Source: a bacterium (GTDB lineage: Bacteria; Elusimicrobiota; Elusimicrobia; Elusimicrobiales; UBA9959). From it: 29,654 bases of DNA. The translations under genes and the position numbers were made by a program. Shown piece after piece: positions 1,638 through 7,780 of the stretch. How positions within the stretch are numbered: the first letter of the stretch is position 1; every line of letters begins with the position of its first letter. The stretch lies in NCBI GenBank assembly GCA_021845705.1, contig JAJZVJ010000001.1, positions 1-29,654 of the forward strand, given 5' to 3'. Below the pieces are notes generated by a model. That model saw nothing but the letters and a program-made list of their open reading frames with translations, had not been told where the DNA came from and made no database searches.

Positions 1638-2999
1638 ATGTTTAAAAAAGTTTTAATTGCCAACCGCGGCGAAATAGCCGTGCGCGTGATCCGCACGCTG
1701 CGCGAAATGGACGTGAAGTCGGTGGCGGTGTATTCCGAAGCCGACCGCTCCTCGCTCCACGTGCGCCTCGCGGACGAGGCCGTCTGCATCGGGCCCGCCA
1801 TGGCGCGCGAGAGCTACCTGAGCATCCCGGCCATAATTTCGGCCGCCAGGATAACTGGCGCCGACGCCATCCACCCCGGCTACGGTTTCCTGGCCGAGAA
1901 CGCGGATTTTTCCGCCGCCTGCCGCGACAACGGCATAACCTTCATAGGCCCCTCGCCCAAGTCCATACAGCAGCTGGGCCACAAGGCCGAGGCCAGGAAG
2001 ATGGCGGTCAAAGCCGGCATCCCGGTGACCCCGGGCACCAAAGAGTGCGTCGGCAAGGATTTCAGGAAAGACGCCGAGAAGGTGGGTTACCCGCTGATGA
2101 TAAAAGCGGCGGCCGGCGGCGGCGGCAAGGGCATCCGCATAGTGCGCGAAGCCTCCCAGCTGGCCAACGAGATGAACATGGCGCAGTCGGAGTCCAAGGC
2201 GGCCTTCGGCAACGACGAAGTATATTTTGAGAAATATATAGAACTGCCCCGCCATATAGAGGTGCAGTTCGCCCGCGATACCCACGGCAACGTGATAGCT
2301 TTCCCGGAGCGCGACTGTTCCATACAGCGCCGCCACCAGAAGCTGGTGGAGGAATCCCCTTCACCCGCGGTGACCAAGAAGCTCCGCGACAGCCTTGAAG
2401 AAGCCGCCGTAAAGCTGGCGGAAGCCGCCAATTACGTGGGCGTGGGCACGGTGGAATTCCTGCTGACCCAGCAGGGCGAGTTCTACTTCATGGAAGTGAA
2501 CACCCGCCTGCAGGTGGAGCATCCCGTGACGGAATTCATTACCGGCTTCGACCTGGTGCGCGAGCAGCTGCTGGCCGCCTCCGGCGAAAAACTTTCATAT
2601 ACCGGCAGCCACAGCGTTCCCTACCGCGGCCACTCCATAGAGCACCGCGTGAACGCCGAGGATTTTACCCGCAACTTCGCCCCCTCGGTGGGCAGGATAG
2701 ACGAGTGGCTGGTGCCCGGCGGCCCCGGCGTGCGCGTGGACACTCACGTGTACTCCGGCTACAACCTGCCCGTCTATTACGACAGCATGCTCGCCAAGCT
2801 CATAGTCTGGGCCCCGGACCGCGCTTCGGCCGTGGCCCGCTCAAGGCGCGCGCTGGAGGATTTCAAGGTTACGGGGGTAAAGACCACCATAGACGCCCAT
2901 AAACTCATAATAGAAAGCCCCGATTTCCAGGCCGGCAAGACCGATACCGGCTTCATGGAAAGGCTGCTCGCCCCGGCAGTGCCGGTAGCGGCCGAATAA
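1638..2999 (+). CDS. accC: acetyl-CoA carboxylase, biotin carboxylase subunit
   Basis: MFKKVLIANRGEIAVR start, HPGYGFLAEN, KAAAGGGGKG ATP-grasp loop, RDCSIQRRHQKL, EVNTRLQVEHPVTE, YYDSMLAKLI. AAGGAG RBS at about 1627-1632. Confidence 0.96.
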   Translation: MFKKVLIANRGEIAVRVIRTLREMDVKSVAVYSEADRSSLHVRLADEAVCIGPAMARESYLSIPAIISAARITGADAIHPGYGFLAENADFSAACRDNGITFIGPSPKSIQQLGHKAEARKMAVKAGIPVTPGTKECVGKDFRKDAEKVGYPLMIKAAAGGGGKGIRIVREASQLANEMNMAQSESKAAFGNDEVYFEKYIELPRHIEVQFARDTHGNVIAFPERDCSIQRRHQKLVEESPSPAVTKKLRDSLEEAAVKLAEAANYVGVGTVEFLLTQQGEFYFMEVNTRLQVEHPVTEFITGFDLVREQLLAASGEKLSYTGSHSVPYRGHSIEHRVNAEDFTRNFAPSVGRIDEWLVPGGPGVRVDTHVYSGYNLPVYYDSMLAKLIVWAPDRASAVARSRRALEDFKVTGVKTTIDAHKLIIESPDFQAGKTDTGFMERLLAPAVPVAAE

Positions 3000-3021: not shown

Positions 3022-3516
3022 ATGAGAACAAGAGATAAGATAATATCCCTTAAAAAGGCGGTAGCCCTGCGCGCCGCCCTTAAGCGCGCGGGGAAGAAAG
3101 CCGTTTTCACCAATGGCTGTTTCGACCTTATCCACGCCGGCCATATAGCCTCCCTGGAGAAAGCCCGCTCCTTGGGGGATTTCCTTTTCCTGGGCCTCAA
3201 CTCCGACGCCTCGGTACGCCGGCTTAAGGGACCCTCCCGCCCCATAAACAAAGCGGCGGACAGGGCGGTGGTCCTGGCGGCCCTGCAGGCGGTGGACGCC
3301 GTGATAGTTTTCGCGCAGGATACCCCGCTCGAACTTATCCGGGCTTTAAGGCCGGACGTGCTCGCGAAGGGCGCCGATTACCTGAACAGGCCCGTGGCGG
3401 GCGCCGGCTTCGCCGGCCGGGTAGCGCTTATCCCGCTGCTGAAAGGCCGGTCCACGACGGTTTTAGCCGGGAAGCTGGCCAAAGCGAAGCCCGGCAGCCG
3501 CGGGAATAAGAAGTAA
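3022..3516 (+). CDS. rfaE2: D-glycero-beta-D-manno-heptose 1-phosphate adenylyltransferase (HldE domain II, cytidylyltransferase family)
   Basis: VFTNGCFDLIHAGH (HIGH motif), LGLNSDASVRRLKGPSRPIN, VFAQDTPLELIRALRPDVLAKGADY. Confidence 0.9.
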   Translation: MRTRDKIISLKKAVALRAALKRAGKKAVFTNGCFDLIHAGHIASLEKARSLGDFLFLGLNSDASVRRLKGPSRPINKAADRAVVLAALQAVDAVIVFAQDTPLELIRALRPDVLAKGADYLNRPVAGAGFAGRVALIPLLKGRSTTVLAGKLAKAKPGSRGNKK

Positions 3517-3636: not shown

Positions 3637-4845
3637 ATGACAGATATTTTCGAGAAATGCAGGCACTTCACCATCGCCAAACAGCTGATGGAATCAGGCA
3701 TTTACCCCTATTTCAAGGAACTTGAATCCGAACAGGCCCCTGAAATAACGATAAAGGGTAAAAAATTCATAATGTTCGGCTCCAATAACTACCTGGGGCT
3801 GGCTAACGACCCGCGCATGAAGACAGCGGCCATCGACGCTGTTAAAAATTTCGGCACCGGCGTCGCCGGGTCGCGCTTCCTTAACGGCAACACCGTCCTG
3901 CACATGGAACTTGAGCGCAAACTGGCCGCTTTCAAAGGCCGTGAAGCGGCGCTTATTTACGCCACCGGCTACCAGATGAACCTGGGCGTTATCTCCGCCC
4001 TGGTGGGCAAGAACGATTTCGCCATCGTGGACAAGCTGGACCACGCCAGCATCCTGGACGGCTGCAGGCTTTCCCACGGCGAAATACGCCGCTACAAGCA
4101 CAACAACATGGCCGACCTGGAAAAAGTCCTCAAAGAAATAGGCCCCAGGCACGGCAAGCTGGTGATAGTTGACGGGGTCTTCTCGATGGAAGGCGATATC
4201 GCCCCTGTCCCCGAGATCTCCAGGCTCTGCAAAAAATACGGCGCCCGCCTTATGGTGGACGACGCCCACGCTACCGGCGTTATGGGCAAATACGGCCACG
4301 GGACCTCCGAACACTTCGGCCTTTCCCACAAGGAAGTGGACATCGTGGTTGGCACCTGCTCCAAGTCCCTGGCCTCGGTGGGCGGCTTCGCCGTGGGCGA
4401 CAAAGACATTATCCATTACATACAGCACCTTTCCCGCTCCATGATCTTTTCGGCCGCCCTGCCGCCCTCCTCCGTGGCCGCCATTTCCAGGGCCCTGGAC
4501 ATCATAGAAGAAGAGCCGGAGCGGATAAAGAAACTCTGGGACAACTCCAGGTACCTTATGAAGCGGTTCAAGGAAATGGGCCTGAACACGGGCGAAACCC
4601 GGACCCCCATCATCCCCGTGATCATAGGCGACAACGAAAAAACTTTCATGCTGTGGCGCATGCTTTACGATAACGGCCTGTTCACCAACCCGGTGGTCAG
4701 CCCCGCCGTCCCTCCGAAGCGCTCCCTTATACGCGTGGTAGCTACCGCTACACACACCCGCGAACAGCTGGACAGGGCCCTGAATATTTTCGAGACCTGC
4801 ATTAAAAAGATCCTAAAGAAAAAACCCGCCGCCCTGGTAAAATAG
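3637..4845 (+). CDS. spt: PLP-dependent alpha-oxoamine synthase, most like bacterial serine palmitoyltransferase
   Basis: N-terminal GIYPYFKELESEQ, FGSNNYLGL, GSRFLNGN, DKLDHASI, VDGVFSMEGD, VDDAHA, and PLP lysine in GTCSKSLASVGG (GTFSKS-like). These resemble Bacteroides-type Spt more than BioF or Kbl. The family call is secure; the Spt specificity is inferred. Confidence 0.75.
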   Translation: MTDIFEKCRHFTIAKQLMESGIYPYFKELESEQAPEITIKGKKFIMFGSNNYLGLANDPRMKTAAIDAVKNFGTGVAGSRFLNGNTVLHMELERKLAAFKGREAALIYATGYQMNLGVISALVGKNDFAIVDKLDHASILDGCRLSHGEIRRYKHNNMADLEKVLKEIGPRHGKLVIVDGVFSMEGDIAPVPEISRLCKKYGARLMVDDAHATGVMGKYGHGTSEHFGLSHKEVDIVVGTCSKSLASVGGFAVGDKDIIHYIQHLSRSMIFSAALPPSSVAAISRALDIIEEEPERIKKLWDNSRYLMKRFKEMGLNTGETRTPIIPVIIGDNEKTFMLWRMLYDNGLFTNPVVSPAVPPKRSLIRVVATATHTREQLDRALNIFETCIKKILKKKPAALVK

Positions 4846-4871
4846 CCAGGCGCGGCCGGAAAGAACCGCTT

Positions 4872-5984
4872 ATGCCTATTGAAATTCGGGAACTGGCCGA
4901 ATCGGAACTCGGCGACTTCGTGGACTACCCTTTCTCCCTCTTCCGGGAACACCCCTACTGGGTAGGGGAGCTGAAAAAAGACACCATCCACCTGCTTGAG
5001 CTCGGCCACCCTTTCTGGCGCCACGGCGAGCGGAAACTTTTCATGGCTTACAACGCCGGCCTCCCGGTCGGCCGCATAGCGGCCATAGTCAACAGCGCCC
5101 ATAATTCATTCCACGGCGAAAATTGCGGCTTCTTCGGCTTTTTCGACTGCGCCGAGGACCCGGAGGCCGCCGCCGGCCTTTTTACGGCGGCGGGGAAATA
5201 CCTGCGCGCGAAGGGGATGGACAAGGTGCGCGGCCCGGTCAACCCGTCCACCAACGAGACTTGCGGCCTGCTGGTGGAGGGTTTCGATTCCCCGCCGATG
5301 ATAATGATGACCTACAACCCGCCCTACTACGCCGGGCTGATAGAGGCCGCCGGCTTCTCCAAAGCAAAAGACCTGCTGGCCTATAACATGGCGGTCGCCG
5401 CCGGCTTCCCGGAACGCTTCGAGAAGATAGTGAAACGCATAAACAGGGGCGGCAACATAGCCGTGGAACTGGTGGACATAAAGAAACTCGACGAAGCCAT
5501 CGCGGAGATAAAAGACGTCTACAACTCCGCCTGGGAAAAGAACTGGGGCTTCATCCCGATGACGGACGCCGAGCTGGACGACATGGGCAAAGCCCTCAGG
5601 CCGATGCTCAAGCCGGATTACCTGTTCTTCGCCAGGGTGGACGGCAAGGCCGCCGCTTTCTGCCTTATGCTGCCGGACTTCAACGTACCCCTGAAAGCCG
5701 CGCGCGGCAGCCTTAACCCGCTGACCATCCTGCCTTTCCTTTATAACATGACCTTCAAGATCCGCGGCGGGCGCATGCTTACGCTCGGCGTCAAGAAAGA
5801 ATTCCGCGGCCGCGGGCTGGAGATGTTCCTCATAAAAAAAGCCATCGAGTCCGGCAAAAAGATGGGCTGGAAGAACGGCGAGATGTCCTGGACCCTTGAA
5901 GACAACACCCTTATAAACAACACTATAGAGTCCATAGGCGGAAAGGTGTACAAGAAGTACCGGATCTACGAGAAGAAGCTGTAA
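4872..5984 (+). CDS. GNAT-fold N-acyltransferase resembling bacterial ceramide synthase (bCerS)
   Basis: F..YP..L...P.W start, GRIAAIVN..HN, GFFGFFDC, RGPVNPSTNETCGLLVEGFDSPP..MTYNPPYY, WEKNWGFIPMT, LGVKKEFRGRG, EMSWTLEDN. It starts 26 bp after the spt-like gene. Confidence 0.7.
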   Translation: MPIEIRELAESELGDFVDYPFSLFREHPYWVGELKKDTIHLLELGHPFWRHGERKLFMAYNAGLPVGRIAAIVNSAHNSFHGENCGFFGFFDCAEDPEAAAGLFTAAGKYLRAKGMDKVRGPVNPSTNETCGLLVEGFDSPPMIMMTYNPPYYAGLIEAAGFSKAKDLLAYNMAVAAGFPERFEKIVKRINRGGNIAVELVDIKKLDEAIAEIKDVYNSAWEKNWGFIPMTDAELDDMGKALRPMLKPDYLFFARVDGKAAAFCLMLPDFNVPLKAARGSLNPLTILPFLYNMTFKIRGGRMLTLGVKKEFRGRGLEMFLIKKAIESGKKMGWKNGEMSWTLEDNTLINNTIESIGGKVYKKYRIYEKKL

Positions 5985-6056: not shown

Positions 6057-7355
6057 ATGCGGTTCTCAGACCTGAAGAAGATAAAACAGCAAGCTTCCGA
6101 ACCTGCTTCCGGAAGGCGGGGCAGACCTGCGCCGGACCGGGGACCCGTTGCGGAGGAGGAGCTCGCGGGCGCGCGGCGGCCGGAACCGCCGGCAGCGCAG
6201 CCGCGGCCGGTCAGGCGGCCGGAACCCCCGATAGCCGAAAAACCCGCCCCTGAGCCTCTTTCAAAACAGCCTGAAGCCCCCGCGGCCGAACCCGGGCCGG
6301 GCGCGGCCGCCCCGGAACGGCCCGCTTCTAACTACGAAAGTCCCCAGAAAAGCCGGCGCGACGCCCGGGCCAAGGCCAGTGTTCCGCAAGCCGCCTTCAA
6401 GGACCTGGACGCAAGGGCCAGGGAAGTCTATTCAACACTTCTCGAACAGTCCGGAGCGTTAATAAAAGCCGTGGACCAGCCTTACACGGAAAAATACGAA
6501 GCGGTAGTTTCGGTCTGCAGGCTGGTTTCGGACACGCTCAGGACCAACGGCGTCCTTCTGAATTACACGACCTTCTCCACGGCCGACGACTATCTCCTCG
6601 CCCACACCGCCAATACTACGATACTTGCGCTGGCCATGGGCCTGGAAGCCGGCCTGGAGGAACCGGAACTCAGCCTGCTCGGGTTCTGCTCCATGGCCCA
6701 CGATATAGGCATGACGGAGTACTCTTCGCTCTATAACAGCCCGGAGCGCCTGGGCGAAAAAGAATTCGCGGAAATGTCGCTGCATGCCGAAGCCGGCGTG
6801 GCAAAACTTGAGCGGATAGTGGACCTGGACTACAGGATAAAAGAGCGGGCCAGGCACATAGTTCTGCAGACCCATGAGCGCGACGACGGATCGGGCTACC
6901 CGGACCGTCTTTCCGACGAGGAGATAGACCCCCTGGCCCAGCTGATAAGCATCGCCGACGTCTATGAAGCCCTGACGCACCCCAGGGCGTGGCGGGAAGC
7001 CATGAACCCGGCCGACGCGGTAAGGGACCTCGTGGAAAAGGAGGGCAGGGGTTTCAACGCCATGGCGGTAAAGGCGCTTATCTCCGCTATCTCTATTTAC
7101 CCGCCCGGTTCCATAGTGGCGCTTTCCTCAGGGGAGATAGCGCGGGTAATAAAGGCTACCCGCGGCTTCCTCACAAAGCCGCTTGTGGAGATCCTGCTGG
7201 ATCAGGATTTCTCCCGGTTACGGCCGTATAAACTCGACCTTTTCGAGCATCCTCTTGTCTCGATAGAACGCCCCGTCCCTTTTAAAGAGCTGGAAGCCCG
7301 CAACCCCAAGTTCGCCGCCGGCGTTGAAATGTCGCGCTGGTGGGTGGAGTGGTAG
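6057..7355 (+). CDS. HD-GYP domain protein (cyclic-di-nucleotide phosphodiesterase family, partly degenerate) with a disordered Pro/Ala/Glu-rich N-terminus
   Basis: LLAHTAN, MAHDIGM, QTHERDDGSGYP, ISIADVYEALTHPRAWR, and the typical C-terminal YPPGSIVALSSGEIARV extension. Confidence 0.85.
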   Translation: MRFSDLKKIKQQASEPASGRRGRPAPDRGPVAEEELAGARRPEPPAAQPRPVRRPEPPIAEKPAPEPLSKQPEAPAAEPGPGAAAPERPASNYESPQKSRRDARAKASVPQAAFKDLDARAREVYSTLLEQSGALIKAVDQPYTEKYEAVVSVCRLVSDTLRTNGVLLNYTTFSTADDYLLAHTANTTILALAMGLEAGLEEPELSLLGFCSMAHDIGMTEYSSLYNSPERLGEKEFAEMSLHAEAGVAKLERIVDLDYRIKERARHIVLQTHERDDGSGYPDRLSDEEIDPLAQLISIADVYEALTHPRAWREAMNPADAVRDLVEKEGRGFNAMAVKALISAISIYPPGSIVALSSGEIARVIKATRGFLTKPLVEILLDQDFSRLRPYKLDLFEHPLVSIERPVPFKELEARNPKFAAGVEMSRWWVEW

Positions 7356-7405
7356 CGCGCGGAACGAAAATACCACCCCGAGACCCTCCGGCCGCCCGGC
7401 AGAAC

Positions 7406-7780
7406 ATGGACAAAAAACAACTTTTATTCATCGAAGACGAGGGCTACGTCATCGACCGGGTGAACGAGATCCTGAACGCGTTCCCGCAATTCGAGGTAAC
7501 GCGCCTGAAAGAAGCGGAGGCCGCCCGGGCCCTGCTGGAGGAAAAGTCTTTCGATATAGTTATAACCGATATTTACCTGCGCGGCGCCAGCGGCCTGGAA
7601 TTCTCTTTCAAGGCCAGGGAAAAAAACAAGGACGCCTGCGTTATCCTGATCACCGGCCTGGACAACGCGGATATGGCCGCCAAGGCCGTCAGGGAAGGGG
7701 CTTTCGATTTTGTGATAAGACCGCCGGGGCTTGAACGGCTTACGAATATTTTAAAAATGGTCACGCTGGTGCGCGGGTAA
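7406..7780 (+). CDS. stand-alone response-regulator receiver domain
   Basis: LLFIEDE acidic pocket, DIVITDIYL phospho-Asp, VILITG, GAFDFVIRP. The ATG at 7406 is preferred over the GTG at 7340, which overlaps the upstream gene. Confidence 0.85.
   Translation: MDKKQLLFIEDEGYVIDRVNEILNAFPQFEVTRLKEAEAARALLEEKSFDIVITDIYLRGASGLEFSFKAREKNKDACVILITGLDNADMAAKAVREGAFDFVIRPPGLERLTNILKMVTLVRG

Follow-up and report, generated by a model that had tools for sequence, protein, structure and literature searches.

Do two adjacent genes in a 29,654-nucleotide stretch of bacterial DNA, referred to here as the window, encode the opening steps of a ceramide pathway? The window is contig C148 of a 2.7 Mb metagenome-assembled genome (MAG) that is 74% complete. 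Two open reading frames (ORFs) at 3637-4845 and 4872-5984, both on the plus strand and separated by 26 bp, encode an alpha-oxoamine synthase resembling serine palmitoyltransferase (Spt; here P0001) and a tandem-GNAT N-acyltransferase resembling bacterial ceramide synthase (bCerS; here P0002). We consider it likely that they encode the first two steps of bacterial ceramide synthesis, in a form that resembles the Bacteroidota one and lacks a dedicated acyl carrier protein (ACP). This reading is based on homology and on the conservation of active-site residues, together with the linkage of the two genes, a natural fusion of such genes and their joint occurrence across the phylum.

A preliminary description of this DNA had placed an Spt-like ORF 26 bp upstream of a 370-residue GNAT-like one, had quoted motifs from both products and had suggested an Elusimicrobiota-like organism. 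The coordinates and the gap were reproduced, and all of the motifs were found at the expected places: GIYPYF (residues 21-26), GSRFLNG (78-84), DHASI (135-139) and GTCSKSL (239-245) in P0001, and GRIAA (67-71), GFFGFF (86-91), GPVNPSTNETCGLLVEGFD (121-139) and YNPPYY (148-153) in P0002. The closest homologues of P0002, at 60-89% identity, are Elusimicrobia or Elusimicrobiota MAGs where the source names them, and the closest named related loci are from Elusimicrobiota; the organism is therefore assigned to this phylum, as had been suggested.

Profile models, solved structures and a phylogenetic tree bear on the class of the synthase. P0001 matches Aminotran_1_2 / alpha-oxoamine synthase in Pfam (E 5e-60), and its top NCBIfam model is NF047600 (SerpalmtaseCFB, the Bacteroidota Spt equivalog) with 547.3 bits; this lies under the curated cut-off of 640 bits, and P0001 is therefore an Spt-type enzyme nearest NF047600 and strictly outside that equivalog. 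Lower scores are given by a BioF/Kbl-related subfamily (439), BioF (402), Kbl (398), the alphaproteobacterial Spt (336) and 5-aminolevulinate synthase (ALAS; 248). Among all PDB sequences the best solved relative is the Spt of Sphingobacterium multivorum (3A2B/8GUH, 432 bits), followed by a Thermus BioF/Kbl-type enzyme (309), Sphingomonas Spt (288), Kbl (260) and a cysteate fatty acyltransferase (CFAT; 258), with E. coli BioF (197), ALAS (184) and CqsA (131) further down.

We took the residues that contact pyridoxal 5'-phosphate (PLP) and L-serine from the S. multivorum structures (PMC10196870) and mapped them through the alignment of P0001 with 3A2B/8GUH. Asn52, Gly80, Ser81, Asn117, His138, Ser185, Asp210, Ala212, His213, Thr241, Ser243 and Lys244 of that enzyme are all retained in P0001, where Lys243, His136, Asp208 and His211 align with the catalytic lysine and PLP set (Lys244, His138, Asp210 and His213). 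L-serine is contacted in the S. multivorum complex by Asn52, Gly80-Ser81, Ser243 and His138 (PMC10196870); the equivalents Asn50, Gly78-Ser79, Ser242 and His136 are present in P0001 and invariant across 71 GNAT-linked homologues. Met271, a main-chain substrate contact, is Ile in P0001.

In a maximum likelihood tree of 82 sequences, validated Spt sequences not being among them, P0001 falls within a 72-member clade (SH-aLRT 97). This clade holds every synthase found beside a P0002-like gene, except that of Streptomyces, together with the Spt of an E. coli cluster and the Spt part of a naturally fused protein, both described below. E. coli BioF, E. coli Kbl and a second synthase of Elusimicrobiota lie outside it, as does the Streptomyces cluster Spt, which sits on a long branch without a resolved placement. 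The Spt-type assignment of the preliminary description is thus favored by NCBIfam, PDB scores and tree over BioF, Kbl, ALAS and CFAT, and a phylogeny of the kind it had called for sets P0001 apart from E. coli BioF and Kbl with 97% support. The second alpha-oxoamine synthase of the same genome lies at two contig ends (C376:2017-2877 (-) and C295:1-457 (-)); its best model is the BioF/Kbl subfamily TIGR01825, at 397 bits over a 286-residue fragment, and it groups with E. coli Kbl in the tree. The two pieces span approximately residues 115-394 and 17-148 of the NF047600 profile and are probably one gene split by assembly.

Cys241 of P0001 stands where S. multivorum Spt has Phe242, two positions before the PLP lysine, and it had been proposed that the resulting GTCSK variant might alter acyl or amino-acid specificity. 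Across the 71 Spt-like genes that adjoin P0002-like genes, the residue before the Ser-Lys pair is Phe in 42, Cys in 18, Tyr in eight and Ala in three; all 18 Cys enzymes are from the Elusimicrobia class and the three with Ala are Endomicrobia-type. The substrate- and PLP-contact residues are constant in these enzymes while residue 241 varies, which leaves the proposal unsupported. Judged from these sequences, Cys241 is a lineage marker, and nothing in them hints at a changed specificity. The variation between Phe, Tyr, Cys and Ala at this position of the PLP motif provides a natural test of whether the residue there matters.

P0002 gives a weak GNAT match in Pfam (E 0.0035, residues 212-333) and no match in NCBIfam, and its family comprises 7,322 clusters at 50% identity matching with E <=0.001. 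An AlphaFold2 model, calculated with 75 homologues, has a mean pLDDT of 96 and displays two GNAT-like halves. In a Foldseek search of the AFDB Swiss-Prot set the top match is A0A0H3C8X0, 'Bacterial ceramide synthase' of Caulobacter vibrioides NA1000, with E 1e-44, TM 0.94/0.90, a root-mean-square deviation of 2.1 Å and 33% identity over residues 3-370; the second is E. coli YghO (TM 0.94, 32% identity). The next matches, mycothiol acetyltransferases and other GNATs, reach a TM of only about 0.6-0.65, and the solved structures that match the model are generic tandem GNATs only. Identity to the GNAT of a Streptomyces cluster is about 38-39%. Gly315, within the FRGRGLE block of the C-terminal domain, and Gly306 just upstream are nearly invariant across 75 family members.

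The GNAT tree comprises 97 sequences, without the bCerS of Caulobacter, Porphyromonas and Bacteroides, and its root was assumed to lie on a paralogue from the same genome. With this rooting YghO splits first, leaving a single clade (96% support) for P0002, the GNAT of the Streptomyces cluster and the domain from the fusion; within it P0002 nests among Spt-linked sequences. The earlier identification of the 370-residue protein as a bCerS holds, in that it is a full-length homologue of Caulobacter bCerS. The paralogue used as root is a second, divergent bCerS-family gene (G000:C177:1205-2377 (-), locus L029) of 390 residues and 26% identity to P0002; it has no adjoining Spt, its neighbors being a LysE-type translocator gene and unannotated ORFs. 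A metagenomic member of the family, P0127 (784 residues), carries two bCerS-like domains in tandem, the two halves occupying separate regions of the family tree.

Using a 12-sequence alignment of the P0002 family as query, we gathered 80 related loci from many phyla, including Nitrospirota, Acidobacteriota, Gemmatimonadota, Myxococcota, Ignavibacteriota, Verrucomicrobiota, Bacteroidota, Planctomycetota and others. At distances of up to 6 kb, 61/80 of these loci have an Spt-like gene, 40/80 a short-chain dehydrogenase/reductase (SDR) resembling the ceramide reductase CerR and 16/80 a PAP2-type gene; a dedicated ACP or an acyl-AMP ligase/acyl-ACP synthetase beside the genes was found in 0/80. 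The window's own genome has only generic ACP and ligase matches, away from the Spt and bCerS genes. The association reaches as far as a natural 780-residue fusion of an Spt-type domain (NF047600, 470 bits) with a P0002-like domain, which has an epimerase-type SDR gene and a PAP2 gene as flanking neighbors. The cluster that holds the Streptomyces member also encodes an AMP-ligase, an ACP, an alpha-oxoamine synthase, MMPL, a fatty-acid hydroxylase and PAP2_3.

In the non-K-12 E. coli 2011C_3361 (L079:6506-12103) yghO adjoins genes for a fatty acyl-AMP ligase, an NAD-dependent epimerase-type SDR, an ACP, spt and lptF/lptG. In K-12 MG1655 (L078:11044-13341) an IS5 element borders yghO, and none of the ligase, epimerase, ACP, spt and lptFG genes is present. 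We considered YghO as a family member with a role outside sphingolipid synthesis and rejected this, since in non-K-12 E. coli its gene adjoins spt, ACP, SDR and ligase genes. We know of no lipid product reported for the E. coli yghO/spt cluster. DNA of yghO was found in 4,757 of 5,426 complete E. coli genomes.

Within the Elusimicrobiota a P0002 homologue (E <=1e-20) is present in 172/201 genomes and in 142 of the 170 that are of high quality, and in every genome for which both coordinates are listed the gene immediately preceding it, in the same orientation, is an Spt orthologue. Genomes without the GNAT mostly give weak synthase matches, at the level expected of a BioF/Kbl-type enzyme, and two have none at the threshold. 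The Spt-bCerS pair is thus a phylum-wide trait of Elusimicrobiota and no peculiarity of the window's genome. Two layouts recur: SDR-Spt-GNAT, in Endomicrobia-type genomes and some other families, and AccC-RfaE-II-Spt-GNAT, in Elusimicrobiales-type genomes including that of the window, where the order is kept in L062-L066, L070 and L080-L090. Of these, L089 is from a MAG labeled Elusimicrobium minutum; the Spt-bCerS pair is also found in the complete genomes G066 and G031. Tight SDR-Spt-GNAT trios are seen in Endomicrobia-type and f30 genomes (L067:7717-11146, L068:7854-11198 and L069), with Ala at Spt residue 241. The GNATs of these genomes group with those of Nitrospirota and Desulfuromonadaceae in the GNAT tree and not with those of the Elusimicrobia class; gene transfer may account for this, or the tree may be poorly resolved here. 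One genome of the window's family, G086, has an Spt orthologue of 77% identity and a best P0002 match of only E 6e-36, the level of a paralogue; its linked bCerS may have been lost or replaced.

The reductase had been reported as missing from the window, and a search of the genome for it had been recommended. No CerR-like SDR was found on contig C148, in agreement with this, and the genome search produced a good candidate, an extended SDR at G000:C320:172-1116 (-) that is unlinked to the Spt-bCerS genes. As queries we used SDRs adjoining Spt-bCerS genes, namely those of the fusion locus, the E. coli cluster and the genomes G043, G031 and G151. Every one of them has C320:172-1116 as its best match in the window's genome, with E-values of 1e-28 to 1e-36 and runners-up at 1e-6 to 1e-15 (fusion locus 2e-30, next 1e-14; E. 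coli cluster 9e-36, next 1e-12; G043, G031 and G151 1e-28 to 1e-32, next 1e-6 to 1e-9). The reverse search from the C320 SDR returns exactly the cluster SDRs of G031, G043 and G151, which makes these reciprocal best matches, and orthologues at 58-59% identity occur in same-family genomes. Its TGGTGFVG (TGxxGFxG), S109/S110, and Y135 and K139 (YxxxK) are invariant in the alignment with the cluster-linked SDRs. TolA/TonB-like and TolR/ExbD-like genes lie alongside on the same short contig (G000:C320:1945-3377 (-), locus L028), an envelope context.

Taken together, these data are consistent with a three-step route. The PLP enzyme would condense L-serine with a long-chain acyl thioester to give 3-ketosphinganine, and the tandem-GNAT enzyme would N-acylate this product from acyl-CoA, as homology predicts for both; the C320 SDR may then reduce the 3-keto group to yield dihydroceramide, a step that we propose less firmly than the other two. 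This order of condensation, N-acylation and reduction would follow the Caulobacter model (PMC11087976). As for S. multivorum Spt, acyl-CoA is the likely donor for the Spt, because no ACP or ligase is linked to it.

The ceramide pathway of Caulobacter is said to have been described by Olea-Ozuna in 2021 and Stankeviciute in 2022. In Caulobacter crescentus it comprises the Spt CC_1162, the bCerS CC_1154 (A0A0H3C8X0) and the CerR CC_1164 (PMC11087976; PMC11324152). The proposed system has the same three enzyme classes, and P0002 matches Caulobacter bCerS over its full length; however, Caulobacter AcpR and AasR have no counterpart beside the genes in the 80 related loci, the Spt and bCerS genes of the window are adjacent, as compared with CC_1162 and CC_1154, and its reductase is unlinked. 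P0001 also scores higher with the Bacteroidota Spt model (547 bits) than with the alphaproteobacterial one (336). The best solved relative, S. multivorum Spt (3A2B, 8GUH), shares the listed PLP- and L-serine-contact residues with P0001 and differs at Phe242 (Cys) and Met271 (Ile). In Bacteroidota generally the three ceramide genes are reported to be unclustered (PMC11334938).

In the window's genome the C320 SDR is the best match of the E. coli cluster SDR and P0001 that of the cluster Spt, whereas the cluster itself is a Caulobacter-type set with ACP and ligase (compare PMC11324152) and the window has no such linked genes. The CerR-Spt-bCerS(-PAP2) operons of Nitrospirota, Acidobacteriota, Gemmatimonadota, Myxococcota, Endomicrobia-type Elusimicrobiota and other groups share the Spt-bCerS core with the window, with gene order and strand unchanged. 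In contrast to these, the Elusimicrobiales type has AccC and RfaE-II in the SDR slot upstream of Spt and its SDR elsewhere, and no PAP2-type gene was found for it.

Other products of this pair of genes have to be weighed. It might make a different N-acylated long-chain amino-ketone lipid, either of the cysteate sulfonolipid type or a 1-deoxy base derived from alanine or glycine, with Cys241 as a possible mark of altered specificity. CFATs share the synthase clade, 28EH and 7U7H (CFAT/SulA) being among the PDB matches with the same fold and PLP chemistry as P0001; S. multivorum Spt also uses alanine and glycine at much lower efficiency (PMC10196870); and Cys241 is fixed across the Elusimicrobia class. 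However, the CFAT side-chain pocket has Ala82 and Ala249 and lacks the Asn117-type feature (PMC13692747), and at these three mapped positions P0001 has the Spt-type residues Ser79 (CFAT Ala82), Asn115 and Ser242 (CFAT Ala249). The CFAT structures score far lower, at 258 and 246 bits compared with 432 for Spt, and residue 241 is free to be Phe, Tyr, Cys or Ala in bCerS-linked enzymes whose contact residues are fixed. We therefore regard a lipid of this kind as an improbable product. We think it similarly improbable, if anything slightly more so, that Spt and bCerS act as proposed and yield an oxidized (3-keto) ceramide that is left as such or passed to a non-homologous reductase, with the C320 SDR serving another pathway of the sugar-nucleotide or hopanoid type. 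Such a role would fit an SDR that is unlinked in the window's family, lies beside tolA/tolR-like genes, finds its best NCBIfam matches in weak HpnA and OleD-type models and is only 27-29% identical to the cluster-linked SDRs. Set against this, in three other Elusimicrobiota genomes its bidirectional best match is the SDR that adjoins Spt-bCerS, with the next matches far behind in E-value, and it is also the top match for the epimerase of the E. coli cluster and for the SDR of the fusion locus, the latter having the same NCBIfam profile; its orthologues are moreover kept, at 58-59% identity, in same-family genomes.

That P0001 simply serves as BioF or Kbl in this organism, its proximity to AccC being fortuitous or related to biotin metabolism, and that the GNAT is an unrelated acetyltransferase, is highly improbable. 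The biotin-dependent AccC is encoded two genes upstream of P0001, and the bioF model gives 402 bits, near its cut-off of 426. Nevertheless, it is the separate Kbl/BioF-type synthase of C376/C295 that groups with E. coli Kbl, P0001 being excluded with 97% support, and E. coli BioF reaches only 197 bits against P0001 in the PDB search. The GNAT partner is a bCerS homologue that is naturally fused to such synthases, and its adjacency to Spt recurs across families of Elusimicrobiota and in other phyla. This explanation is already largely refuted.

Several points weigh against the ceramide reading that we prefer. The ceramide activities ascribed to this lineage are predictions from its genes. The NF047600 score of the synthase falls short of the curated cut-off, the rooting of the GNAT tree on the C177 paralogue is an assumption, and the bCerS family need not have a single function, because a divergent member exists in the same genome. 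The C320 SDR is only 27-29% identical to the cluster-linked reductases, among which the E. coli cluster SDR stands as a proxy for Caulobacter CerR; because of this low identity and the use of a proxy, the reductase is the weakest step. The search for head-group enzymes was negative: a query resembling PAP2 or inositol phosphorylceramide synthase gave no matches in the window's genome and five related genomes, nor did a fatty-acid hydroxylase query in the window's genome, which is 74% complete.

The features of the locus are collected in Table 1. A scan for promoters and terminators gave no signal exceeding shuffled expectation.

Table 1. Features of the Spt-bCerS locus and its neighbors, in window coordinates.
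Feature	Coordinates	Strand	Evidence or remark
Spt-like alpha-oxoamine synthase (P0001, 402 aa)	3637..4845	+	NCBIfam, PDB search, tree
bCerS-like tandem-GNAT N-acyltransferase (P0002, 370 aa)	4872..5984	+	AlphaFold2 model and Foldseek
PLP-lysine motif GTCSKSL	4351..4371	+	alignment to 8GUH/3A2B; residue roles PMC10196870
GNAT motif-A-like putative acyl-CoA-binding block FRGRGLE, C-terminal GNAT domain	5802..5822	+	motif position
Biotin carboxylase AccC	1638..2999	+	Pfam CPSase_L_D2, Biotin_carb_N, Biotin_carb_C; upstream neighbor kept in Elusimicrobiales-type loci
RfaE domain II-type heptose-1-phosphate adenylyltransferase (lipopolysaccharide core)	3022..3516	+	TIGR02199, 172 bits; immediately upstream of Spt, position conserved
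HD-GYP-type protein, HDIGM and GSGYP motifs	6057..7355	+	Pfam HD_5, E 2e-20; 72 bp downstream of bCerS
Response-regulator receiver protein, overlaps end of HD-GYP gene	7340..7780	+	Pfam Response_reg, E 8e-18

The HD-GYP gene is kept beside bCerS in the same-family genomes L062 and L063, and the response-regulator gene is conserved in L062, L063, L064 and L070. We suggest that the HD-GYP protein, the N-terminus of which is rich in Pro and Ala, is a possible co-transcribed regulator, and that the succession of the two genes after bCerS may point to a link with cyclic di-GMP (c-di-GMP) signaling. A separate protein, P0211, in which a PilZ-related domain is fused to a bCerS-like domain, hints in the same direction. 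To our knowledge no link between bacterial sphingolipids and c-di-GMP has been described.

LpxC is present in 198 of the 201 Elusimicrobiota genomes, that of the window included. The idea that sphingolipids replace lipopolysaccharide was rejected on this ground, and because lipid A synthesis is kept the proposed lipid would coexist with lipopolysaccharide. A broader proposal is that ceramide lipids are a near-universal core of the Elusimicrobiota membrane, coexisting with lipid A and retained by genomes as small as 0.5-1.3 Mb, and that in Elusimicrobiales the pair sits in an AccC/RfaE-II envelope operon whose following HD-GYP and response-regulator genes tie sphingolipid output to c-di-GMP. 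We offer this as speculation that is doubtful as a whole.

The preliminary description had called this a lineage not known for sphingolipids. This stands insofar as our literature search found no paper joining Elusimicrobia with serine palmitoyltransferase; the matches listed for Elusimicrobi* with sphingolipid looked, as far as their listed entries go, like unrelated microbiome or metabolome studies, and the parts of the Black Sea paper supplements that were available do not mention Elusimicrobia. The surprise was overstated, however: published reports had placed sets of Spt, bCerS and CerR in 9 phyla and, later, Spt-like genes in about 40 (PMC11334938). Elusimicrobiota is thus one more phylum for a pathway already predicted in many, and no new mechanism emerges from it.

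The compact gene set, with two adjacent genes, one unlinked reductase and no dedicated ACP, makes a convenient minimal system for heterologous reconstitution. Elusimicrobiota include cultured isolates, termite-gut symbionts and groundwater lineages, and cultured relatives appear to carry the same genes. If lipid analysis confirms the proposed products, a whole phylum would join the sphingolipid-building bacteria; this would bear on the reading of environmental sphingolipid signals and on outer-membrane biology beyond the Bacteroidota and Alphaproteobacteria.

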